Assembly: GCA_036172245.1 (NCBI GenBank)
Contig: JAYWIR010000054.1
Coordinates: 62,001-126,000, forward strand
Length of the DNA: 64,000 nucleotides
Source of the DNA: Raillietiella orientalis
Taxonomy: Eukaryota
Direction: 5' to 3'
Made by a program: the position numbers and the translations under genes
Shown: positions 41 through 51,330 of the stretch, in pieces
Layout of the letters: each line of letters starts with the position of its first letter
How positions within the stretch are numbered: the stretch's first letter is position 1
Notes under the pieces: model-generated
The model's database searches: none
Told to the model about the DNA's origin: nothing
Seen by the model: only the letters and a program-made list of their open reading frames with translations

Positions 41-483
41 ATGCCCGAGGACGCCGCCAAGACGGCGGAGGGGGGCGAGCGAGCCTCGTCCCCCCAACCC
101 ATGGATGTGGGGGCCATCTCCCCCACAGATTCGTCCCCCGCCCCGGCGAGGGCTTGGAGCGCGGTGGTGGCGGCGCCTGCGCCGCCCCCCGCAGAGGAAC
201 AGCGGGCGTACATGGCCGACGGGTACAACCCGGCCCTGCTCTACAAGGTAGGTGGCCTCTACTCCCCCGCGGTCTTGTGGTCTTTCGCCGCAGAATTTAA
301 GAAGTTAAAAGTCCCGGAGGACGAAGTCCTCGGGCTTTTGGTGCGAAGTGGCGGGCAGCTGGTTGAGCTGAATTGCAAGTCTGCAGGGATGGCTCAACAG
401 CTGCTGCGCCTGCCGGTGAGCGTGAACGGGAGAAGAATCTTCCCGTTCACGGCGGACAATTCGATCGTTGTCCACCTCTCCGG
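41..483 (+). pseudogene. LINE ORF1, N-terminal part
   Basis: MPEDAAK...PMDVG...AWSAVVA...IVVHLSG resembles the N-terminus of the LINE ORF1 at 46500 (PMDVG...SYGAVA...AVYLSGI). It rejoins 1497 in frame as VHLSG|LWPEIAD. Confidence 0.75.
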
Positions 484-618
484 AATAACAATGGCAAAGA
501 ACGCTGTCCGAGAAAGTTGGGAGGTGAATTGGGAGGTGCACTGCAAGGATACAGGCCTAGTCCAGAACCTGCTCCGAACACCCCTGAAAATCAGGGTAAG
601 GAGTTCGTACCCTCGGCC

Positions 619-640
619 CTGGACCATGGTCTTACTCCAG
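619..640 (+). promoter_or_regulatory. Putative degenerate rolling-circle origin stem-loop
   Basis: CTGGA-cca-TGGTCTTAC-TCCAG: a 5-bp stem with a nonamer (627-635) matching TAGTATTAC at 7/9 positions, ~25 nt upstream of the Rep start. Direct repeat TTGGGAGGTG at 517-526 and 529-538 is iteron-like. Confidence 0.4.
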
Positions 641-662
641 TGAATTACCAAAAGCAAACAAG

Positions 663-1496
663 ATGCCATATGCACTTTTCTTTGCCTCACTCTGCAATTA
701 CAGCTAAGAATTCAAAGCTATCAAACAATGGTGTCGCTGTAACTGCTTCTTTGCCTGCATTGGCAAAGAATCAGCTGAAACAGGAACACCTCACCTTGAA
801 GGACATCTTCAACTAAAAGAACCTCGCACACTACCAGGACTACATAGAAAACCTTTTCACAAATGTCAACTGGAAAAAGCCAAACGTTCCGCACAGAACA
901 TACGGAACCGCAACAAGCAGGACCAAGATGCCTGGGTATACGGAGCCCTCCGAGAAAGCAGAAGCCAAAAGTTACAAAGAACAAGTAAGTTTGCTAGGCA
1001 ATTCCAATAACCTCAAGATGACCACCTTTCAGATACTTATCGAAAACCGGGCAGATGAACTATATATTCTCAAAAACCATACCCTTTTTACGCCAAAACC
1101 ATCAACTTCATCAAAGAATGCTTCCGCATCTCCCGAGCAAGAACCCATCCCAACCCTTTGGGCAACCTACAACCACGCGGATGGCAACTTCGCATTATGC
1201 ACCTCATCCGCCACCAACCAAATCAGCGAAAAATACATTGGTTCTACGACACCGTTGCCAACACCGGAAAAACAACCATGGCAAAATTCCTATTCCGCAA
1301 AAAATCAGCCATTTACATGCACAGCTCCAAAAAAGCCGACGCAGCCCACATATACAACGGAAAGAATCATCGTTCTAGACTTCAACAAAGACAACCAAGA
1401 ACACGTCCAATACGGCTTTACGGAAAGCTTGAAAAACGGAGTTATCTTCGACAATAAATATCATGGGAGCATTAAATACTTCGGTCCAACTTTCAG
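663..1496 (+). pseudogene. rep: CRESS Rep (HUH endonuclease + SF3 helicase), frameshifted and 3'-truncated
   Basis: Degenerate motif I (CLTL/NY, ~683-701). Motif II IGKESAETGTPHLEGHLQL (~760-815). Motif III region LEKAKRSAQN. Walker A RKIHWFYDTVANTGKTT (~1225-1277). Walker B ERIIVLDF. B' region YGFTESLKNGVIFDNKY. Motif C is missing. Several stops and frameshifts. Confidence 0.9.
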
Positions 1497-2976
1497 CCTT
1501 TGGCCGGAAATAGCCGACCCCGACTAAATTGTTGCATTGGAGGCGTTCGCCATCATGCACGCATTGTGGAGGCGCGTGAACCCCTTAAGAAGGTTCCGCG
1601 CCTCTTGCGGACTCGCCACCGCGCGCGTCACCATGGACAACAGGAGTCTGCTGCCTTCGCAGATCCTCCTTGGTGACGACGTCGTGTTTCTCCGGTTTGC
1701 CCGACAAACCCCGGTTTGCGCCAACTGCGTCAAGGAGGGCCACCGTCCGCGGAAGTGCCCCACACGCAGTTGCCGATACTGCAAACTGCTCCGCCACTCG
1801 ATCAACGAGTGCGTCGAGCTGAAGCGTAAAAGGCGGGCGAGAAACCTCCAGGCAACATCGCCGTCCGCGCCGACTCCATCCGCCCCATCCTCGGGCAAGA
1901 AATCCGGCGCGAACGGGGATCTGCAGCGCAGACGCAAAAAGTCCGATTGCACGAGCGTATCTGGGAGCAATGCTCCACAAAAGCCGGCGCAAAAGCACAA
2001 AAAGCTTCACCAAGCTGCTCCAAGCAAGCCCAGAGGGACCCAGCCCGCTGAGAACATCGGGCAGACTGCAAAACCGCCGCTCCCGTCCGCTCTCGCTCCG
2101 GAGAGAAATAGCGGTGGCACGCCCGGGAAGTCCACCGGAGCAACGAAAAAGGGGTTGCGCGCCCCTTTGCCCGCGAAAGGCAAGCCGGCCACGGCAAACG
2201 CATCCGCGGAAAAGGCTGCAAAGCCTCGCGAGACCTCGAAGAATCCTGCCACTCTGCCCGCACCTTCCGGTAAGGAGCTGCAAAAGGCAGCAGTGACGAC
2301 GGACACACTGGCCGCCATCGCCGCATCGGAGGCCTTGGAAAGGATGCGGAGGACCCTGGAAGCCCTCGCGCCGAACCGAGGCAAACCCGAGGGAGACGAG
2401 GTTGGCTGGACCTTCGTTGGGGGAAAGAAGAAAGCGCAAACCGCGCGATCCTTCGCACTTCCCCATCATAGAGGTAGGCGGGGTTAAGAGGCAGCCCCGC
2501 GCGCCGAGGAAGGCGCAAGAAAAAGCCTCCGCTGCCGCCGCGCGCGCCGTCGCTGTTACCCGCGGCGAGAGGGTAGCTGCCGACGCTGCGACTCCGAAAG
2601 GGAGAGCGGAGCCAAAAGCACCCTCAAAGAATGCTGACCAGCTCCCAGCCGCCAGCCAAAGAGACAGCAGGCAAAATGCCTGCTGCACACGCAAAATTCG
2701 GACTCCGACATGGAATCCGAAGGCAGCGCGAAGGCTCGCCAAGCCCCGGCTAAGCCCAGGAATGCGCGCAAGCCCAAACTTTCCAGGCAAAAGCCTGATA
2801 CCGGGAACGATTCCCGATGTTCCTCGGAGACCGAGGCAATGGTCGTCGACTCCACCGTGCCAGCCGCGTGCGGCGCAGCGGAGACAGGTTGCGCTTCCGC
2901 TCCTCAATCCGCCGTGTTCCGGGCTAACGCATCGCTGGACGGGGCGAGGAACGCACCTCTATGTCCGCAGCCGTGA
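1497..2976 (+). pseudogene. LINE ORF1, C-terminal part with zinc knuckles and low-complexity tail
   Basis: LWPEIADPD*IVALEAF...CANCVKEGHRPRKCPTRSCRYCKLLRHSINEC followed by an Ala/Lys/Pro-rich tail with frameshifts. Confidence 0.75.
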
Positions 2977-3660
2977 TGCGCGGGCTCGCTTCTCGTCGCG
3001 TCCGAGTATCCTGTTGGAACGTCAATGGGCTGCAGGACAACGAGAATAGGCGATTGGTAGCTAACTTCTTGAGCGACTTCGATCTGGCCCTGCTGCGGGA
3101 GATTCACGCTCTCTCCGAACAGGAAGCAGCCGATCTGGCAGTTCGCGCAGGCGGGAAGCTCCATTGGAGGTCAGGCTCCCAGAATACTTGCGGAGTCGCA
3201 TTCCTTGTCCGGGGCAGGGTGGCGGTGGCGGTGCGAAGCGTTTGTTTCGACGAGGAAGGTCGTGAGCCAACTTGTTCTCAAGTGGTCCGAATCGATCGAC
3301 CTTGTCGTCACGAACGTGTACGCGGCGTGCGGCTCCACGCGTCACACCGAGAAACTCGAGTTTTTCGAGAGACTGCGCGACCGCTGGCTTACAACTCCGG
3401 CCCCGACGTGGCTCACATCGTAGCCGGGGACTTAAACGTCCACACACTATCGGAGGAGACACACCGTCGCCGGGAGAAGCGGCTCGTGAACGAGGTGCGA
3501 GCATCAATGCACGCTTCGAATTTGCTGGCCGACGAACCTGGGATGCGTGCCTTGCCGGACCATGTGTTCTTCGACGATCACCTCTATTGTCGGGTGGGTC
3601 GAAGAATCTGATGCCGCCCGAGCTCTCCGACCACCAGAGGCTGGAGTTGATGTGGTCATT
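2961..3660 (+). pseudogene. LINE ORF2 apurinic-like endonuclease domain
   Basis: SCWNVNGL, LREIH, GVAFLV, NVYA (shifted frame), GDLNV, DHVF, SDHQRL. Confidence 0.85.
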
Positions 3661-5401
3661 ACTGTTGGTGCGGTGTGGGAGGGGCATTCCGACTGGATCC
3701 GCCTGGGGATCTCAACGGGTAGGTACTTCAGGTACTTTGGCATTCCATGGGTCGACTTCGTCTCTGCCGGAGGTTTTTCGTATTGCCTTCAAAAGGCAGA
3801 GTTGACCTTAAGTCCGTTCCTTCGTGATAAGTATTACTTCGCGGAACGGGCTGTCATTTGGAACACTTTTGTGGCCCCCTTTCTCCCCCTCGTTTTTTGT
3901 TCTATCCCTCCATACGACGCGAAGAGAGCTCGAGCCATGCTAAGAAACGCTCCTTGGGGAGCGGCGAGATCCAAGATTCTCAAGTATTTGATGGCTTCGC
4001 GATGGGATGTCGACTTGGGCAACCTGACGCCGGAGCGTATGGAGTTGCAACTGCAGTTGCGAATGCTGACACTGCCCAGCTATGGACTACCTCGTTGTGT
4101 GTGCCTGCACGCATTCTGCTGCGAAGATGCGCCAGCAGCGAAGGACTGCTCTTGGTGCTGCCAGGCAACATTATAGAAAGCGAGGATTCGGCTTCCCCTT
4201 AAGGCAACTCGCCTCTTTTGATGAAGCGCAACCATATATCTCGTGCCGCCCAAGGAACTGCAACGCATGGTGACCGTAGTCCGTTAAATCCTGGACCGCA
4301 TTTCATGAAATGAGTTCAGAATTTCTACTCCTTTCGGCACCTGCTGTCAGGACCTATGAAAGTGGTAATGCAGGACGTCGCAAAGTGGTCCACAATAGCC
4401 GCTCCCCACTTAGTGCAGCGCTGTCTGCTCTCAGGGCAAGTGAGGTTGTTTACCGGCGAAACGGGAGATTTCCTGCTCAACAGCAGGAACTTCATAACTC
4501 GTGGGTGGTTGGAATACGCATCAGTCAGCAGATGTTGCTACACCACACACAACTGCTGCAAGGCTTCTTCGGTGATGCGCACTTTTAAATGTTTCCAAAG
4601 TATTCATGGTTCTGTCGATCCGTGAAAATACATCAGTATTTCCACTTGGTTGGAAACAGGACGTGCTGCTTCACGTGCACTGAGGATTCCAGTGCAATGA
4701 GCGACAGCATCGTGTTTCCGGTATGGTCGGTTCTCCGTAATGTGGTGGGTGCGGAACGACGGAGTCGTTCTCGCATTTGCTTTTAGACTCCGGTGCCCTT
4801 CAGAAATTATGGCGAAGGCTGGCAGCAGCACTCCTGCACCAGGACACCGCTCTAGATGTGTTGCGGAGGCTCTTCGCACCCGGTGGGCTCACGGCCGGCG
4901 CGGTGATCGCAACCATAGGTTGCATACGTGCCATTGTCGCAGCACGAAATGTGCTGGAGACCAAGAAACAGCGGAGGGATCTCACTGCGAAGGGAGTCAC
5001 CTAAATCGGCACGTCTGCGAGTTGGCATCACCTCGACGATGAGACGAAGATCGCCGGCATAGAGCACCCGTTCACGGATGCTGAGAAACTGTCCATCCTG
5101 GTGACCAAGTTTCTTCCGCCATCGCAAGGTACAAAATACGGAAAACCAGGCGAGGACGAGCTACCTGAGTTCTTCAGTGTTTCGCGGCGGAGCTCGGTTT
5201 CCTGGTGTTGAGCCTCTCGTCGCTGATGCGAGACACGAAACACTCGCCGCTGATTTCACCCCCTCGTTTCGATCAGTTGAGGTCATCTTTTGCCGAAAGG
5301 CGGACACTTGCAAACAACTCGAAGACTCACTTCCAATCACGTTGGTTAATTCCAACGTCAAATTGTTCCTTCAAGAAACAATTTGACGTCAGGTGCGCGA
5401 C

Positions 5402-13449: not shown

Positions 13450-15680
13450 CGTTCATCAACCACTGCGCTTCCTGGATCTCGGGACGGCGGATCCCTCTCC
13501 CAGGGAAGGATGCGGCGGTTTCTCAGGATTCGCGGGTACCTTCGCACTGTCAAGGTTCATCCTGAACTCAGATGTGAAGTCGATGCCGAATGTCTGGGAC
13601 AACAGAATTGAGAACAAACCGTAAGCCCACGGATCGCTCCCACACTAGCGTTCGCCGTGTCTGGAGGACGCACGTTGGGTCACATCAAGTGTGTCCAGGC
13701 CTTCCTAGGATAGCGCAACGTCTCAGAAAGCAACCTAGTGCTGGAACTCACCGAAGCAAAGACCTCCGACTCGGTGGACCACGGCATGCTAGTGAAAATC
13801 CTTTGCAAGGTGGGCTTTCAAGAAAACGTACCTGCAGCACGCAGGACACGCCCTCGAAGAAGCAAATTTTCGACTCAACATCAACGATCAAAGCTCCGAA
13901 AGCATCAAGAGTTCGACAGGGGGACTACCATGCTCTTCTCCATCTACACTAAAGGAGCATTAAGCCCTCGCTGCCAACGAGGAACACCTCAAGGGTATAA
14001 CCTTGGAAGAGATCGTCACGCATATGGACGACGCCAACGATCTGCTGTTCGTAACGTTCTGCGGTCAGGGTCAACAGGCGCATCCTCGACATCGTCAAGC
14101 GTTGACTCGAACTAAAGCAAATCCGAGCAATCCTTGTCGGCCTGCTGGCAGCAAAAATGCCGGAGATAACCGCCCTCCACCGTTACGTCGGATTCCACGT
14201 CGTAGACAGGGCAAGGTACTTGGGAGCAGCCGTCGGCGGCGAAGACGCGACAGTCGAAATGCAGTGCCAGAAACCATCCTCGCCAAAATGAGGAAGGAGA
14301 TCCACCTGAACGAAATAGTGAACCTCTTCTTCGAAGACGGAAGCGGTTGGAACGGAGTGGTTGCACCGAAGTTTGTCGCTCCGATTCATCTTTCGTAAAA
14401 GTGCCAAAAGTGGCGACCTGAGGACTAGCCCAACGGAACTTGGTCTGGAGGGGAATAAGACCAAAGGTGAAAATCGTACCTATGCCTCCCGAGCTACAAA
14501 GGAGGGCATTAGGTATGCGAGAAAGCTCCCGTGCCGTGAAACTCAAGGACCTGGAGCAGCTGGCCTGATACGTCAGCAAGCAGGACGAATGTAAGCGCGT
14601 GTTGTTCTCAAATTGGTCCATGGAGCCGGCGGCCTGATGTCCGTCATGTCGTTCCAATCCGAAAAATGGAAAGTCGTCAATCCCTCCCGCCCAAGGATGC
14701 AAATCCTCGAGGAGACTTTGAAATTGAAGACCATCTCGACAAATCGACCCGAAAAGCACGAGATTGAGATGAGGAATGAGACAAGAATATCTGGTATAAG
14801 GTGCTCACCAAGGGGAATCCGTTGTTAGCAACTTCCGATGCGAAACGCACCGGGGAAATCACTCACTTGGTACGAGTCCTCGCATACAAAGGATACATGG
14901 AATGGTGGGTAACCCGCAAGTTTCATGTATTCCGCAAGCCTGAGGTAAGCAGTGGTCCAGAGTGAACAATTGAAGACACCAGACGGTGTGACTTCAGTGG
15001 AAGCGACAAGCAAGATACGTGGTGGAACAGCAGTCAACCCGCAGACCATCGGGAGAGTCTGCTAAAGATCCTTGTTACCACTTGACGTACAGGATTGCCT
15101 CCTGATGTTTTATCATGGAGGCATTCCATGCGGTGGTGGTACGGAAATCCCGACGACAGCCAGTGCCCAGCGTGTGGCCCAACCGAGGACGAACCACGTA
15201 TCCGCACCTGCCGCAACCTTGTTCAAGACTGGAAAGTGGCACGGTAAGCCATCGGAAACCAAAATAACAGATCCTGAGAAGGCAGTTTGGGGTGAAGGCG
15301 GTGCGCGCCCAGCTGCGACCCCGCTGTGAAGGCGTTCGTCGCGTATCTTCTGGAGAGCAGCATCGTCAGGAGGACGGAGTTGAAGAAGAGGACATCTGCA
15401 AAGAAAAAGCAACCATCCGTGAGCGCGAAAGAGTGTCCTCCTGCGCTCTTCTGCACCGCTCGACGATTGTGGCATACAAGGCCAGAGTGGCAAAAAGACT
15501 TATCCGCGCGCTTCGTGGAAAAATGGCAAGCGACCCACCGGTCGCCGATGCGAGAAAGTTTACTTGCTCGATTTCGTTGGTTGATACTGTACAACTTATT
15601 CACCCCACCGCAAACCGGACTGGGAAAACAGGAGTGTCCCAAAAGCACCTGCGGCGGCTCCCTCCCCCCTCCTTCCCGTG
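13450..15680 (+). mobile_element. Decayed LINE ORF2 fragment (RT and C-terminal region)
   Basis: AKTSDSVDHGMLVKILCKVGF matches EKVFDSVDHGMLLKILRKMGY at 49535. MLFSIY, THMDDANDLLF (decayed YADD) and RYLG follow in order. Confidence 0.75.
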
Positions 15681-30008: not shown

Positions 30009-31385
30009 TCACGGAGGAAGCATGGTGCTTATCTCCACCACGTTCTGGAGTAAACTTTTATTGTGAACGAAAACAGCAAAACGAAAAATGTCACCTTGTT
30101 AGCATCCAGCACACTTTTCCAGTCCTGCTGAGAAATCTTGGCAGCAGCTAAGGCAATCAGGTCCAAGGCCTTCTCACTAGATTCCTGAAGAGTTTTCATT
30201 ACTTTCTCCACACAAACATGATCATCTGCTTTCCAACAATCATAATCAGTCACTATTGCCACATTAGCATAACTGAGACCTGCTTCTTTAGCTAACACAA
30301 CCTAGAGCAAATGAAATGTGTCTGCTGTTCTGTTTGCTCATATGCACCTCAGGCACTGTTGTCATGTTTACCACATCGGCACCCCACTGCTGGAACAAGC
30401 GACTTTCTGCTGTCGTAGAAAATCTTGGCCCTTCAATGGTAACAGTAGTACCAGTAGGATGATGACGCAGGTTTAGTTCTTTAGCACATTCCAAAAGAAC
30501 TTCACAGGTGGATGAACAGAACGGTTTTTGCATAGGAATGTGGCATACACCTTTAGGAGAGTGTTCTTCACCATCATAGAAAGTGTTCTGCCTTTTATTT
30601 GTTCTGTAAATGTAATCAGGCAGTCTCAAAAAAAAATTGTACAGTCTGTGGTTACCTATCAATAAATTGGTCAAGGATCACAAGGTCACCCGGATAGATG
30701 TTTTCTTGTAGAGAACCACAGGCAGTTGTTGCCAAAATGTGTGTACATCCAGCTTCTCTCAGTGCCCAAATATTGGCACGATAATTGACTTTAGAAGGCA
30801 TGATGGTATGGTATCGGCCATGCCTAAGAAGCCATAACTAGAATATGTCTTTAAATTTTGGCGAAAATATACGAGAACTATCGAGCAAGTACATGCGAGG
30901 TACAAGGAGCACTATACCTGCCCAGTATGACACAGTCAACACCTTTTAATTTTCCTTGTATGAGGGCATCCGATGGTTTTCCAAATGGGGTTTCCACATA
31001 CCATTCCTGCCTTCCCGTTATAAAATCGCTATTATGATAGCCCGTACCACATATAACGGCCACCTGAGTAAGAAAAAAAAAAAAAGGAAGTAAACTGGCA
31101 CTTTTCAGTGAGGATTCTATTTTTTTTTTTTTTTTTTTGGAAACATCACTAAATCGTTTATGAACAGAGCGATTCTCGGCATTTCCGATTACATACACGA
31201 CAAAAGGCAACCACCGGAAAAACACGGGTCGACAAATCTACAGTGTGTTTCCACTCCCACCCCCTGCATGGGGATGTGTTAACGAACAGCACACGGGCGT
31301 TCCACGGAAGGGAACAAACAAAGGCAAAGCTCGGTATCTCCTCTGCGTGTATTGAATTTGCACAACTAACCTTCGCGGACACCAT
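30009..31385 (-). CDS. MTAP: S-methyl-5'-thioadenosine phosphorylase (6 coding exons)
   Basis: Exons 31385-31371, 31063-30918, 30823-30656, 30603-30348, 30301-30095, 30044-30009. Motifs [51 protein letters not shown]. Confidence 0.96.
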
Positions 31386-46499: not shown

Positions 46500-47903
46500 A
46501 TGGATGTGGGCAAACCAGGCCCCTCTAAGGAGGGACCCTTGGTGGGACCAAGAGAGGGCCAGGCGCAACCGCTGTCCTATGGGGCGGTGGCAACAGCAAC
46601 CCCGGCTGCGGAAAAACATATTATAAGGCTGGCAATGTTTAAAGTCGAGAGACAAGACGAGTCAGTCTAAAAGGTCGACCACGATGTAAAACAGGTCACC
46701 TTCAAAACAGGAATGCTGCGTCTCGGAAATATCCGAGACGTGCACGTAGCTTTCCACAAGCTTAACGTAAATTTCAGCAAGATAAAGACAATCATCACCT
46801 CGGCAACGGGGTTCACGGTGTACACCCCTGACGAAGATTTAAGAGAATTCCTGATCGAACAAGGAATGACATTAAATGGCAGATCGTTGCGAGGCCTCGG
46901 AGAGCTGATCAATGCGGCGGTCTATCTCTCTGGGATACATTACAACACAACAAGGAAGACAATATGGGAGTTCTTTTCTCAATATGGGGAAGTTCAGCAG
47001 GTTGCGTTCCGTAACCATATGAAAGAAATCTTCGGAGGAGTAGTAAGAGTAAATGTAAAGCTGTTTGCTGACGCCAAAATTCCGGGCATCATAGCAATTG
47101 ACCAGGACTCGCAGGATGTCACAACACGGTATACGCTACAAGCAACTTTCTGTGCAGGATGCAAGGAGTTTGGACGCCGAGTGGGTGCCGCTCCAAGGTG
47201 AAATGTTTCAAATGCGGACAGATGGCCATTTTATAGAAGAACCAATCGACCACCGCACTGCTACCATTGCAAGATGGAAACTCACCTCAAAAAGCAATGC
47301 GAAAAATACTCGGACTGGTCGGTGGCCAGAGGACTACCACCTTCACCGGAGGTAGAAGAAAGGAAAAGGTAGGAAGCAGAACAGCAAGAGAAGGTTCCAG
47401 TCAGCGTAGGAGCAGATGAAGAACAGAAGAACAAACAGAAACAACAGAAGAAGAAAACTCCACAAAGGAGGAAGCAGCAAGTAATGGTAGGGGAAGAATA
47501 AGAAAGCCATGCTACCGAAACTGAAAAGCAGAAAGCCGGAGGGCATTTGCAAGAAGTGGCAATGCTCACGAAAAAGATTAGTCCTAGCAATACGGAGGTG
47601 GAACGTGAAAAATATGCACTTTGCCTGGCCGAGCTGCAAGACGAGATCGAAAAAACGCTAGTAGAGGCAAAACTAAGGTACGTAATGGAGAACAAACTAG
47701 GCGAAGCAGAACTGAAAATTTGCGAACAAGGAACAAGGCCAGCAAGAAAAATGACAAGAGCGGCATATCATCTTCAGGAAAAGGAAAGCACGGAAATTAG
47801 CGAATCAGAAAGTGAAGGAGGGGAAAGACTACCATCCGAAGACTATCATTCTATTCGGGGAGCTGACTATTTTCAGCTCCCCGAAGCAAAAAAAGAAGAA
47901 TAG
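46500..47903 (+). pseudogene. LINE ORF1 (gag-like)
   Basis: VYLSGI...FFSQYGEV...CAGCKEFG, KCFKCGQ, HCYHCKMETHLKKQC; stops and frameshifts. Confidence 0.8.
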
Positions 47904-47912
47904 AAAAGCAAC

Positions 47913-50900
47913 ATGAAAAACCCAATGGTCCCTTTCCTGCCGTCTGCTAGGACCCTGAAGATTGCCTCCTGGAACATCAACGGCATGATGAACCAAGACA
48001 AGAGGAGGGGGATCACGCGCACCATCGAGCGTGACGACATTGTGTGCCTCCAGGAAACCCATGAGGCGAGACAGGACATCTGCCTCGAACTAGAACGACG
48101 CCTGGACGCCAAGATGTTCTTAAGCCCGGGAGAAAGCATGACGAAGGGCGTGGCGATCCTCGTGAAGAACGACATCGCGCACAGCATCCTGGAGTCCTTC
48201 TGCCCGTGGCCCGGCCGCATCGTCGGTGTTCGGGTGCCTTGGTTCGGAAACGTGCACCTGATCCTGGTAAACATGTACGCACCGCACCGATTGACACATA
48301 GATGCGCGGAAGTCGTGAGAGACTTGCTCCGCACTAAAGCCGCTCCTAAAGACATTGACGTCGTCATGGGTGACCTCAACATGCAGAAATACGAAAACCA
48401 ACCGTTCGATTCACGAGGAGGACGGTCGTACCAGATGCTATCTGAAGAGTTTGGTCTGCAATGGCTAACCGCTGGACACAAGCCGATCGATCACACCCTG
48501 TACAGCGAAGACGTAGGGAACCGCATCCAGAGGTTCCGGGATACGCAAACTCTACTCTCGGATCATCCTCTGGTGCAGTTCACCTTGAAGACGGAAAACC
48601 TTCGTCACAAGAAAGGCTTCAGGGCTGCGCTCCTCTGCATGCCCGAACATTTCCCGATCACCAGCAGCTGATCGAGTCGAGTCAGCGGCATCCACAGAGT
48701 CGATGACTGGAATTGGTTGGAACACACGATTCACCTGCTTGCGAACCTGCAGTACGGCAGGAAGAGTTGGAGGCAGGAAGTGTACCGGGAGTTGAATATC
48801 CAAGATCGTTCCCTTTCGCGGTATTGGGAACAGTACGAACGACGGTACATATTTCAATCGGTGATAGGGAAAGTTGGCGTGCAGGAAAAGAAAAATCTGG
48901 CTACAGATATATTCTGCATCCAGCACGAAAATCGAATGTGCCATGAGCCAGAAGAAATCCTGGAGGCATTCCACCAACATTACGCCTCCCACTTCCGACG
49001 ACGAGAACACCTATCGAGTGGCAAGCAGGAGATGTTTCTGCGCTGTCTGCAGAAACGACTCTCATCGCAGCAACAAGATCGCATGAAAAAGGAAATCTCC
49101 CCAGAAGAAGTCAAGAGAGCGTTTCTAGGATTGTGCACGTATGTGGCGGCGGGCCCCGACAGCGTGCCCATCTCGCACTACCGGAGGTAGCTGCACGCCT
49201 ACCTGCGCCTGTTCCACGAGCTCACGCTCTGCATCGAAGAAGAGGGGAAGCTCCCGGATTCGTTTCACGAAAGCAGGATGCGACTGCTGCCAAAGGGAGG
49301 CGATCTTTCGCGGATCTCCCAATGGCGGCCCATCTCCATCCTGAACACCGACGCCAAGTGGTTGGCCAAGATCTGGGCCAATCGCTTGGGCTTGACGATA
49401 CAGTCGACTGTCTCTCCATCTCAGACGTGCGCGGTGGCCGGCCGACGCATGTCCAACAACGTGAAGTGTGCCCAGGTCACCATCGGTTATAAGTCGCTAC
49501 GTCAGCGACAACCTGGTGTTGGGTTTCGCATATGGAGAAGGTCTTCGACAGTGTAGACCATGGCATGCTGCTGAAGATCCTGCGGAAAATGGGCTATTCA
49601 GGACACTTTAGCGACTACATTGAAATGACATTGAGAAAACAAGAATGCAAGATCACCATCAATGGACGTAACACGGACGGTATCCCCAAGGAAAGGGGAA
49701 TCCGACAAGGAGACGCCCTGAGTCCGATGCTGTTCGTCTTGTACATGCAGGCGGTGTCGTCATTGACTGATCGAAGGAGCATCCTGAAAGGTCTGATCAT
49801 GGGCAATGACAGGCTCACGCACCTGGCGTATGCGGACGATCTGCTTTTCTTCTTGAAGGATGAGAAGGATCAGCATGCGTTCCTCGGTGTAGTGGAAAGT
49901 ATGGAGAAGGCGCTGGACCTAAAAATCAACGCCCGCAAATCACACCTCCTGCCCATCGGGATCCTGGACCTCTCCGCCTTAACATAGAAAGGTTTCCGCG
50001 TGGTAGACGACGTGGAATACCTGGGAATCCACATCGGGGACGCGTCCTCGCAACAGTTCCAGTGGAAGGAAGGTTTAGCAAAAGTCCGAGAAGAAGGGAC
50101 AAAGTACGTCCGAGTCGACTTCAGCATGGAGCAGAAGGTAAACTTGTGGAATGGCATGCTCCTTCCCAAGGTGCTCTTCGGGGCGACCTTCTGCCGAATT
50201 GACCAGAAGACGGAGTAGGAAGTGGAGAAGTTGCAGAGGAAGATCATCTGGAAAGAATGCAAGCAGTGCGTTAGTCTCAATTCACTGTGCCGACCGCGAA
50301 AACAAGGTGGGACCGAGATGAAGTTGCCACCCAGGCCGTCGATTACCTGGACGCGCGACAACTCTTGGTTCTCACAGCAGATAAGTGGCCTTATGCAGCC
50401 CACAGGGAATACTCGAGGCTGGTCAACAGCTCGATTGGTCTGATGTTGGCGCTCATAGGCAAACACGGAGATTGGGGTACCATCGACCCCACATGGAAAC
50501 GCACGCAGGCACTGATGGCCAAACGCCGTTTTAAAATTGTGCCGTGGAGCAAACAGTTGCGAAGGAAAGAATTGGCCATAGTCATCTCCTACTTTGTACC
50601 TGTACCAAGGGACACCCGGAGGTGGATGTTCCAGAAACCAACTATGACCATCTGAGAATGTGAGCAGTTTGCAACCAGTGGCAACGTTCACAAGATAAGA
50701 CTGTTCCAACCATGATTGGAAGAGTTACCAGTAAGATGCGCGAACTTTGAAAATACCAGGCATCCAACGCTTGGGTCCTGGTCACCAAGGCCAACATCCG
50801 CGACGTCATGGAACAAAAGGATCAGGAGAGAGACGTCCTAGCCATGGCTGCCAATCGCTACGGGACACGGATTGTGAACCTGGAGGCGATTGGAACTGCA

Positions 50901-51330
50901 GTCTTCCCGCCAGACACTCAGGATAATCTTCTCCTGTTTTACCTTGGAGCCATTCTGAGTGGAGACAGGATAACGCAGTGGACGGGAAACATTCAAGATG
51001 AGCTCTGCAAGGCGCGTGGGAGCAAGGAAACTCAGCTCCACGTCCTCACCTTCGTCAGAACTGGAGCATACTGAAGGCGGTGATTGGCCTGCAGAGAACC
51101 GCAAGATTAGACATCCCAGCGGGAATGTTCGACAGGAACGTTAATGTCCCGCGATACAATCCCATGGTACGGTGCACCATTACGAGTGTCGGGATAAGAA
51201 GGACAGGAATGGAAATTAGGAATACAGGAAACATGGTCCCCGCCATGAACATCCTACAAGGTCGCATCAAGAGAGAAATCGGGATTAGGAATTGCGGTAA
51301 GAAACCCGCATGGACTTACCGCTACATCTT
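47913..51330 (+). pseudogene. LINE ORF2 (APE endonuclease + reverse transcriptase)
   Basis: SWNING, CLQETH, GVAILV, NMYAP, GDLN, SDH; AGPD; WRPISILNTDAK, KVFDSVDH, GIRQGDALSPMLF, LAYADD, EYLGI; several stops and frameshifts. Confidence 0.93.

Follow-up and report, generated by a model that had tools for sequence, protein, structure and literature searches.

The window, the whole 64-kb stretch of DNA analysed here, opens inside a LINE (LINE-A) whose 5′ end runs off the window, and the first open reading frame of this element is divided by a decayed Rep gene (Table 1). The interrupting sequence is an endogenous copy of a CRESS-DNA-virus Rep, comprising an HUH endonuclease and an SF3 helicase. 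The original prediction had placed it within a LINE ORF1, and this position is borne out: the Rep lies in sense orientation between two ORF1 parts, and the apurinic/apyrimidinic-type (APE) endonuclease domain that opens ORF2 downstream matches Pfam Exo_endo_phos (2.9e-10, profile positions 3-204 of 225).

Judged by its predicted domains, the host element is a GC-rich APE-type LINE with an ORF1 of the RRM-like plus CCHC kind. The N-terminal part of ORF1 (41..483) has GC 0.58-0.73, GC3 0.73-0.86 and a CpG o/e of about 0.9, and the C-terminal part contains one internal stop (TAA at 1525) ahead of the end stop at 2485. No direct Pfam match was obtained for LINE-A ORF1; its CCHC knuckles weakly match retroviral nucleocapsids in the PDB (E 0.009), and its C-terminal part is homologous (score 44, reached in 0 of 2000 shuffles) to the RRM and CCHC portion of the ORF1 of LINE-B, a separate element at 46.7-47.2 kb whose ORF1 matches Pfam RRM_1. 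Searching the C-terminal part against the window returned only itself, and a word-index protein search with its residues 1-125 gave 58 candidates, none significant. The endonuclease also matches the LINE-1 endonuclease in the PDB (8e-04), with its SDH motif in another frame. Pfam detected no RVT domain in 3266-5042, no contiguous reverse transcriptase follows the endonuclease, and the nearest RT-like fragment lies at 13759-14016. Because a contiguous reverse transcriptase and a 3′ end are absent, this copy of LINE-A must have undergone later rearrangement. There is no uninterrupted copy of LINE-A within the window, which also carries a 765-aa ankyrin ORF. In the Protein Atlas the clusters nearest to this ORF are rotifer ankyrin/ART ones, at 0.94 but sharing only ~120 of 256 features, which makes them a weak lead to the host; the APE domain gave no informative taxa there.

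Table 1. Features of the Rep-bearing LINE-A copy, in window coordinates
Feature	Position	Strand	Frame and basis
LINE-A ORF1, N-terminal part	41..483	+	Frame 2; ATG at 41, ends ...SIVVHLSG; contiguity with 1498-3611, paralogy
ORF1-type module	484..643	+	Frame 2 goes on for 52 codons to TGA 641-643; blastp, tblastn and Smith-Waterman paralogy
Rep pseudogene, frame 3 part	645..1361	+	Pfam Viral_Rep, PDB 7kii, profile matches, tblastn starts 612-663
Degenerate motif I, FASLCNYS	681-704	+	Frame 3
Motif II, TGTPHLEG	780-803	+	Frame 3
Motif III region without Tyr	894-923	+	Frame 3
Walker A, ANTGKTT	1257-1277	+	Frame 3, after a linker
Rep pseudogene, frame 1 part	1360..1494	+	Profile 238-283/360, E 3.1e-12
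Walker B, IIVLDF	1366-1383	+	Frame 1
Motif C with KNG..KY signature, YGFTESLKNGVIFDNKY	1411-1461	+	Frame 1
3′ junction zone	1485..1527	+	Rep frame 1 passes directly into LINE ORF1 frame 1; TAA at 1525
LINE-A ORF1, C-terminal part	1498..2487	+	Frame 1; rest of RRM-like domain, CCHC knuckles, basic low-complexity tail
CCHC knuckles of LINE-A ORF1 (two)	1717-1758, 1771-1812	+	
LINE-A ORF2 start, APE endonuclease domain	2961..3650	+	Frame change near its end

Identity, decay and relatives of the Rep

Several lines of evidence identify the Rep. Three pieces of the window, ~645/663-1007, 1083-1361 and 1360-1494, are collinear in their matches to full-length CRESS-DNA-virus Reps. Pfam Viral_Rep (PF02407) is matched by 708-1010 at 1.3e-05 and 25.8 bits, against a curated cut-off of 26 and with a fragment as the query. 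A phmmer search of the same region against 1.84 billion representatives returned 45 proteins at E<=0.001, the best of which is a spurious repetitive protein and the other examined ones Rep-like. The endonuclease piece matches PDB chain 7kii ('ATP-dependent helicase Rep') at E 2.1e-05, and chain 6h8o ('Replication-associated protein') at E 0.8 only. A profile of 360 positions built from 120 relatives was then searched against the 2299 ORFs of the window; three matched, all within 708-1524, and the next best had E 3.2. The three matches place 708-1007 on profile positions 31-128 (E 1.2e-13), 1059-1454 on 145-243 (E 4.8e-22) and 1348-1485 on 238-283 at the E value given in Table 1. Relative P0014 (386 aa) aligns with the pieces collinearly and abutting at residues 15-110, 181-239 and 238-282, so that the two helicase pieces (P0002 and P0003) adjoin on it, and the same collinearity recurs on other top-ranked relatives among the best 40 of 163. 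The Rep identification made in the original prediction is upheld by these matches, and the tblastn/HMM check it proposed came out in part: the endonuclease is recovered by Viral_Rep, whereas the two helicase pieces searched alone found no Pfam family and no PDB Rep. When the broken endonuclease piece was used in a word-index protein search, none of the 39 candidates was significant. Neither tblastn nor the 120-relative profile found other Rep or capsid remnants in the 64-kb window, and no second Rep-bearing copy was found there.

The predicted motifs, TGTPHLEG, Walker A, Walker B and that of the motif C region, are all present on the + strand and in the order described, the three helicase motifs lying 3′ of the endonuclease. 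Motif II is of the HUH type and aligns to GTPHLQG of the relatives. The helicase signature singled out earlier, Y..LE..KNG.I...KY, is indeed common to the closest relatives of the window Rep, and KNGVIFDNKY forms part of its motif C region. The remaining endonuclease motifs are eroded. FASLCNYS corresponds to the relatives' CFTLNNYS only in gapped tblastn alignments that cross a stop, and the ORF at 600-704 taken alone gave no match to the 120-relative profile. Where the relatives have N..YC.K in motif III (Y-C-x-K), the window has NIRNRNK (R-N-R-N-K), and the aligned Tyr is absent, as would be consistent with a pseudogene. In-frame stops occur in frame 3 at 705, 1008 and 1056, a single frameshift near 1360 moves the Rep from frame 3 to frame 1, and the C-terminal end is absent, the match ending at position 283 of 360 after KYFGPTF with the last ~77 profile positions gone. 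Because of the stops and frameshift, the loss of the catalytic Tyr and the missing C-terminus, the Rep is by every sign in its sequence a dead copy that does nothing now. A Ciliate/Hexamita code (TAA/TAG=Q) was considered as the cause of the stops and rejected: the two ankyrin ORFs of the window are without TAA or TAG and would not be lengthened by it.

The best-scoring named relatives of the window Rep are three (Kopavirus, Manawavirus and Otevirus), all of Anicreviridae in the order Mulpavirales, which also holds Nanoviridae. None of the searches returned a named nanovirus or alphasatellite sequence. In a FastTree phylogeny of 89 rows, the window Rep falls together with these three genera on a 62-row side (SH-like 100), but in a basal polytomy outside the 54-row group that unites them (SH-like 87), on a long branch of 1.57. 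Its identity to Anicreviridae Reps is at most 32% over 215 columns. The lineage thus placed appears to be related to Mulpavirales/Anicreviridae and to branch basally. The earlier description as nanovirus/alphasatellite-like stands only at about the level of the order: the named relatives are Anicreviridae, and the copy branches basally. Nanoviridae and alphasatellite Reps carry a helicase signature of the Y..LE..KNG.I...KY type, and the nearest named relatives of the window Rep belong to their order. Anicreviridae Reps resemble the window Rep in how their domains are ordered, in a motif II of the HLQG type and in the helicase signature Y..[IL]E.[IL]K[ND]G..FS.KY. They differ in that the viruses have a small circular genome with a capsid gene and a NAGTATTAC stem-loop origin, the latter present in 74 of 80 related viral contigs, whereas the window holds a Rep fragment only; neither an origin adjoining the Rep nor a capsid gene was found.

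The ORF1-type segment and the limits of the viral piece

The original prediction treated 484-1496 as one viral block inserted cleanly into ORF1, and here it does not hold. Rep homology sets in only at about 612-663, where the tblastn alignments start; from 648 on, 'PKANKMPYALFFASLCNY' pairs with the N-terminal '..PKR...WCFTLNNY' of several relatives, and 484-643 gave no match to the 120-relative Rep profile. Frame 2 is open without a stop from 2 through 640. Within the segment, 533-613 is a diverged paralogue of LINE ORF1 365-445: blastp gives 3e-07 with 11 of 27 residues identical (41%), tblastn over the whole window gives 3.6e-05, and the Smith-Waterman score of 66 was reached by 0 of 5000 shuffles, the shuffle maximum being 45. 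The segment 484-640 is ORF1-like in nature. Two further leads were dropped. An apparent repeat of 484-504 at 644-662 ('G-I-T..K' twice) is not significant, its score being reached in 722 of 2000 shuffles, and the one locus (L001) that a metagenome scan with ORF1 2-643 gave proved to be a spurious 22-residue match on the non-coding strand of a bacterial contig. An AlphaFold2 model of 224-640 made without an alignment was uninformative (mean pLDDT 39.8).

Because 484-643 continues the LINE ORF1, the viral part begins near 641-663 unless the insert is compound. The segment would accordingly either belong to LINE-A itself, as a second RRM-like module, or stem from another LINE and have arrived with the Rep; of the two, a native module at 484-640 seems most likely. 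Its composition is intermediate (GC 0.53, GC3 0.64, CpG o/e 0.45). Against a native origin, the CpG o/e falls to this value starting near 484-500, in keeping with a junction at 483/484 (5 CpG in 484-640 where about 11 are expected; the flanking LINE has a CpG o/e of about 0.9-1.3); an RRM would usually be longer than this module; and in the ORF1 of the distantly related LINE-B a single RRM occupies the interval from the equivalent of the 'V.LSG' strand to the knuckle.

The alternative is a compound insert bounded exactly by 483/484 and 1496/1497, in which a ~160-nt ORF1 fragment of another, diverged LINE would be followed by the Rep; we regard this as possible but less likely. Such an insert could have arisen through three template switches, or have been copied from another LINE that already bore the Rep. 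The frame arithmetic that was predicted for the excision of 484-1496 is correct, joining frame 2 to frame 1 at CTC TCC GG|C CTT TGG, and the resulting VVHLSG|LWPEI is in frame. The join would give a plausible RRM beta1-alpha1, with a spacing to 'G.....V' of 36 residues as compared with 34 in LINE-B. GC drops together with CpG o/e from about 484-500 onward, and 484-640 is only as similar to its LINE-A counterpart as a different family would be (the 41% identity above). However, a compound insert needs a chance in-frame fusion and an additional recombination step, and it must account for 53 stop-free codons after the junction beside a Rep with three stops. No second LINE family of this kind occurs in the window, where tblastn with 485-640 finds itself and 365-445 only. 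LINE-B also fits the native continuation equally well, as its ORF1 scores 49 against both that and the 483/1497 join and so offers no choice between them.

The 3′ boundary is fuzzy. The tblastn alignment ends beyond 1400 cluster at 1482 (39), 1488 (14), 1506 (9) and 1524 (3), and in the junction zone some relatives align 'PTFSLWPEIADPD' with 'P.VIVFAN..PD'. GC climbs from 0.40 to 0.57-0.62 across 1485..1527. The breakpoints of the viral piece would lie roughly at 641/663 and 1494/1524.

Origin of the insertion and its precedents

With the identity and decay of the Rep and the order and orientation of the parts established, the account that we prefer, and to which we give about an even chance, is that a dead Rep of ~0.85 kb (641/663-1494/1524), related to Mulpavirales/Anicreviridae, lies in sense orientation inside LINE-A ORF1, and that the ORF1-type segment 484-640 is likely native to the element. 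The viral piece would begin only a few codons from the Rep N-terminus and end ~77 profile positions before its C-terminus. A fragment of viral DNA or of a Rep mRNA would have been incorporated into a copy of the LINE. Two routes can be proposed. In the first, the LINE reverse transcriptase would have made two template switches, from LINE RNA to Rep mRNA and then back to LINE RNA, with run-off at the 5′ end of the Rep mRNA between the two. In the second, viral DNA would have been end-joined where a LINE copy in the genome was broken. A more far-reaching version is that the LINE reverse transcriptase took up the Rep as viral mRNA through template switches, in an infected germline or a unicellular host, and that the chimera went on to found a LINE subfamily that spread the viral gene, and perhaps the extra ORF1 module, to many loci. 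This seems rather unlikely. If true, it would mean that cressdnavirus transcripts are LINE substrates, and the basal Mulpavirales-like Rep lineage would gain both a host and a copy-number clock.

Other explanations fare worse. It is very unlikely that the locus is an assembly chimera in which the assembler fused LINE sequence to a Rep fragment of viral or episomal origin, since the Rep is heavily decayed by stops, frameshift and truncation, unlike that of a replicating virus, the two flanks follow one another within a single ORF1, and the reading frame of the Rep passes into that of the LINE at the 3′ side. Slightly less credible still is a clean, purely viral insertion of 484-1496, with 484-662 as viral upstream sequence. 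Nothing favors it except that the join is arithmetically in frame and that GC and CpG o/e fall near 484-500, and it is already contradicted by the ORF1 similarity of 533-613; moreover 484-643 lies in the open frame of the LINE itself and lacks a Rep profile match, and 560-670 contains no origin-type nonanucleotide or stem-loop. Least probable of all is a domesticated ORF1-Rep fusion, that is, a LINE lineage using a captured HUH/SF3 domain of which the window copy is a decayed member: the Rep does begin near its own N-terminus directly behind the ORF1 module, and its final portion shares the frame of downstream ORF1, but three stops, a frameshift, the lost catalytic Tyr and helicase C-terminus, and a break in frame at the 5′ side, from frame 2 to frame 3, all speak against function.

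Viral fossils of the Rep type are already known, including ones embedded in LINEs, for which carnivores supply a published precedent. Dennis et al. 2019 (PMC6372831) describe circovirus Rep fossils that lie within LINE-1 and have been amplified in carnivores (CVe-Carnivora-4), and propose that the fossil was copied together with the LINE-1 element. Like the window locus, CVe-Carnivora-4 is a CRESS-virus Rep fossil physically joined to a LINE. As far as that account goes, it differs in combining a Circovirus Rep with mammalian L1 at 10-20 copies, whereas the window has a Mulpavirales-related Rep with a nano-type helicase, a different LINE with an RRM/CCHC ORF1, and the Rep inside ORF1 itself. 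Liu et al. 2011 (PMC3198968) report endogenous Rep-like sequences that circular ssDNA viruses have left in the genomes of eukaryotes, which resemble the window copy in being degenerate, with stops and frameshifts; the relevant passages of that paper place Rep within elements resembling DNA transposons (Tuber), and its text nowhere refers to retrotransposons, whereas the window Rep lies in a LINE. For the template-switching route, Gogvadze et al. 2007 (PMC2104539) describe chimeric retrogenes generated by template switching of the LINE reverse transcriptase, with double switches documented. Those chimeras, like the window locus, fuse LINE sequence directly to copies of other transcripts. In the cases that paper sets out, the foreign RNA stands 5′ of a LINE 3′ part, whereas in the window LINE sequence flanks the foreign piece on both sides, and the foreign RNA would be viral.

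One decayed copy provides a further example of such fossils and no new principle. Rep fossils supply a host and a minimum age for uncultured CRESS-DNA-virus lineages, and the window Rep appears to represent a deep branch without a name, close to Anicreviridae and Nanoviridae, with hosts that are mostly unknown, for which the locus can serve as a host record. Its placement within a LINE ORF1 also offers a way to test the capture of ssDNA-virus transcripts by LINE reverse transcriptases.

A Rep fossil and its relatives

The ORF1 of a LINE here holds a real but dead Rep fossil, whose lineage is Mulpavirales-like and basal; judged by motifs and homology, the insert in this GC-rich APE-type host element (LINE-A) contains a genuine Rep. 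All of the motifs named in the original prediction lie on the + strand (see table), and its Rep assignment is borne out by the profile searches. The endonuclease piece, ORF 708-1010, matches Pfam Viral_Rep at 1.3e-05 (25.8 bits, slightly below the curated 26) and the solved Rep endonuclease domain 7kii in the PDB at 2.1e-05. With phmmer against 1.84 billion representatives it finds 45 proteins at E<=0.001, and those inspected are Rep-like, mostly of 190-460 aa. The top-ranked protein, repetitive and 874 aa long, was rejected as spurious. The two helicase pieces (the Walker A part and the Walker B/motif C part) have no match of their own in Pfam or PDB; both match the helicase halves of P0014, P0016, P0024, P0030 and P0046, a subset of the phmmer proteins. 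The three pieces are collinear and abutting in full-length relatives, falling at 15-110, 181-239 and 238-282 of P0014, an intact relative of 386 residues. A Rep profile was built from 120 relatives of 250-480 aa among the listed matches of a word-index search with P0014, and was run on the window's full set of stop-to-stop ORFs (15 aa or longer, 2299 in number); three match and no others, the next ORF having an E of 3.2.

The Rep copy is a pseudogene. Its frame 3 part, ~645/663 to 1361, is interrupted by stop codons at 705, 1008 and 1056; after a single frame change near 1360 the copy continues in frame 1 to ~1485-1524. The motif III tyrosine of relatives (N..YC.K) is aligned with NIRNRNK in the window. 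Because the match ends at profile position 283 of 360, the strand following KY....P and the C-terminal part are absent; no further Rep or capsid remnants occur elsewhere within the 64-kb window.

Coordinates of Rep, LINE and other features in the window
Feature	Position	Strand	Remarks
TGTPHLEG	780-803	+	frame 3
ANTGKTT	1257-1277	+	frame 3
IIVLDF	1366-1383	+	frame 1
YGFTESLKNGVIFDNKY	1411-1461	+	frame 1
Rep profile match	ORF 708-1007		1.2e-13; profile positions 31-128
Rep profile match	ORF 1059-1454		4.8e-22; profile positions 145-243
Rep profile match	ORF 817-1524		3.1e-12; profile positions 238-283 of 360
Two CCHC knuckles	1717-1758, 1771-1812	+	within frame 1 ORF1 part, with basic tail
APE-type endonuclease, LINE-A	~2961-3650	+	Pfam 2.9e-10; PDB LINE-1 endonuclease 8e-04
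Ankyrin-repeat ORF, intron-free, 765 aa	15682-17979	+	Pfam Ank_2 1.6e-50
PNP_UDP_1 phosphorylase-superfamily fragment	30291-30677	-	4.4e-15
LINE-B	46671-51000	+	other family, more complete than LINE-A; several frame breaks
LINE-B APE domain	47904-48671	+
LINE-B RT	49493-49987	+
Ankyrin-repeat ORF, intron-free, 368 aa	62077-63183	+	Pfam Ank_2 1.9e-32

With P0014 as query, the word-index search yielded 2038 proteins at E<=1e-05, the best 120 of which come mostly from contigs of ~2-2.5 kb; for six of these 120 an organism or virus is named. Those listed include the Anicreviridae members Cyanoramphus nest associated circular X DNA virus, Dragonfly larvae associated circular virus-10 and Otevirus, along with Pacific flying fox faeces associated circular DNA virus-3 and Delphin virus 1. 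Anicreviridae belong to the order Mulpavirales, as do Nanoviridae, Metaxyviridae and Amesuviridae. A FastTree phylogeny of 89 rows combined the window Rep (each break written as X), 57 of the 120 listed P0014 relatives and 31 phmmer proteins of at least 250 aa, leaving out P0004, shorter phmmer matches and the remaining listed relatives. The window Rep falls on a 62-row side (SH-like 100) with all Reps having nano-type helicases, opposite 27 with circovirus-type helicases. Its position there is basal and not further resolved, outside a 54-row group (SH-like 87) that contains the three named Anicreviridae genera, on a long branch (1.57) and with a top identity of 32% over 215 columns. The nanovirus/alphasatellite-like label of the original prediction is reasonable at the level of the order, and tentative at the level of the family. 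Among the matches listed, P0069, P0081, P0096, P0104, P0109, P0127 and P0136 are on contigs 48-794 kb long, one of them named Mytilus edulis, and the same broad Rep group is therefore endogenous in other eukaryote assemblies too.

The host element and the limits of the insert

In LINE-A, frame 2 is open from 2 to 640 (ATG at 41, TGA at 641), and ORF1 resumes in frame 1 from 1498 with LWPEIADPD, a TAA at 1525 and an open stretch to 2485. The sequence from 1498 onward is ORF1, since 1498-1760 significantly resembles the RRM+CCHC region of LINE-B, the second LINE in the window (score 44, 0/2000 shuffles). LINE-B ORF1 itself has a Pfam RRM_1 match and a knuckle-like CxxC, and its APE domain shares 26% identity with the LINE-A one. 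The SDH motif ending the LINE-A endonuclease sits in a different frame, and no contiguous reverse transcriptase was found downstream of it; with ORF1 parts and an APE endonuclease, the host is therefore a LINE whose 3′ part is lost here. An RT-like fragment at 13759-14016 (+), 10 kb beyond LINE-A and with 30% identity to the RT of LINE-B (tblastn 2e-05), could be that displaced 3′ part or an unrelated LINE remnant.

A clean insertion at 484-1496 had been proposed, and deleting it does restore a continuous frame between both ORF1 parts. The stretch 484-643, however, is not Rep: neither the Rep profile nor tblastn finds a Rep match there, and paralogy to ORF1 is found instead. ORF1 365-445 has a diverged paralogue in the residues encoded by 533-613 (blastp 3e-07, 11/27 identical; tblastn on the whole window 3.6e-05), with a Smith-Waterman score of 66 that none of 5000 shuffles equals (mean 21.7, maximum 45). 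Part of the supposed insert is, on this similarity, LINE-type sequence. Rep alignments start at 612-663, and the N-termini of several relatives align from PK at 648.

We regard it as an evenly balanced proposition that LINE-A natively has a second RRM-like module, 484-640, and that the viral insert spans ~641-1497. This reading is the more parsimonious, for the open frame crosses 483/484, the ORF1 frame staying stop-free for 52 codons up to the TGA at 641, and the Rep piece would begin at its own N-terminus. Somewhat doubtful, by comparison, is a break of LINE-A at 483/484 by a compound insert, a piece of another LINE's ORF1 joined to Rep, for which speak the neat join VVHLSG|LWPEI, the single RRM of LINE-B and a fall in CpG o/e to 0.45 from ~484-500; CpG is undepleted in LINE-A, and GC across 484-1496 (0.40-0.50) is below both flanks (0.56-0.73). 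The LINE-B alignment score is 49 under either model. The 3′ breakpoint lies somewhere within 1485-1527, alignment ends clustering at 1482, 1488, 1506 and 1524; PTFSLWPEIADPD is alignable with P.VIVFAN..PD of some relatives, and the downstream ORF1 frame is also the last Rep frame.

Possible routes to the chimera

Any mechanism has to explain the sense orientation of Rep, a 5′ end at or a few codons from the Rep start, a tail-less 3′ end that falls within the coding region, and flanks of LINE sequence at either side. The chimera may have formed by a double template switch of LINE reverse transcriptase or by end-joining of viral DNA, which fit equally well. In the former, the enzyme would leave LINE RNA for a site within a Rep mRNA, run off where that mRNA ends 5′ and then resume on LINE RNA; in the latter, a viral DNA fragment would be joined into a genomic LINE copy. 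Double template switches are documented for LINEs (PMC2104539), and PMC6372831 and Liu et al. 2011 (PMC3198968) describe, respectively, Rep fossils embedded in and amplified with LINE-1 in carnivores and widespread Rep fossils in eukaryotes. Rep fossils in LINEs are thus already known, and this locus adds one more case.

Origin-type stem-loops and other features

At 3814-3849 (+), 2.3 kb 3′ of Rep and just beyond the LINE-A endonuclease, a 22-nt loop containing AAGTATTAC, a nonanucleotide of the CRESS origin type, sits between the arms of a perfect 7-bp inverted repeat (CCGTTCC/GGAACGG). This stem-loop is probably due to chance. A loose origin pattern is expected ~3 times per window, no Rep or Cap remnants lie nearby (Rep profile, window ORFs), and the repeat is unlike those of related viral contigs, 74 of 80 of which have a 10-12-nt loop with the motif abutting the stem. 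Across these 74 loci the nonanucleotides are TAGTATTAC (42), CAGTATTAC (26), AAGTATTAC (4) and others (2). With the 80 contigs oriented to place Rep on the + strand, a NAGTATTAC stem-loop is on the strand opposite Rep in 12 of the 15 loci listed.

The window is eukaryotic DNA, a GC mosaic of 0.37-0.62. Both ankyrin-repeat ORFs have TGA at each side and neither TAA nor TAG inside; the similarity of the 765-aa one to rotifer ankyrin proteins is a weak lead as to the host. The PNP_UDP_1 fragment adjoins an AT-rich block that covers 26-30 kb (GC 0.37-0.38).
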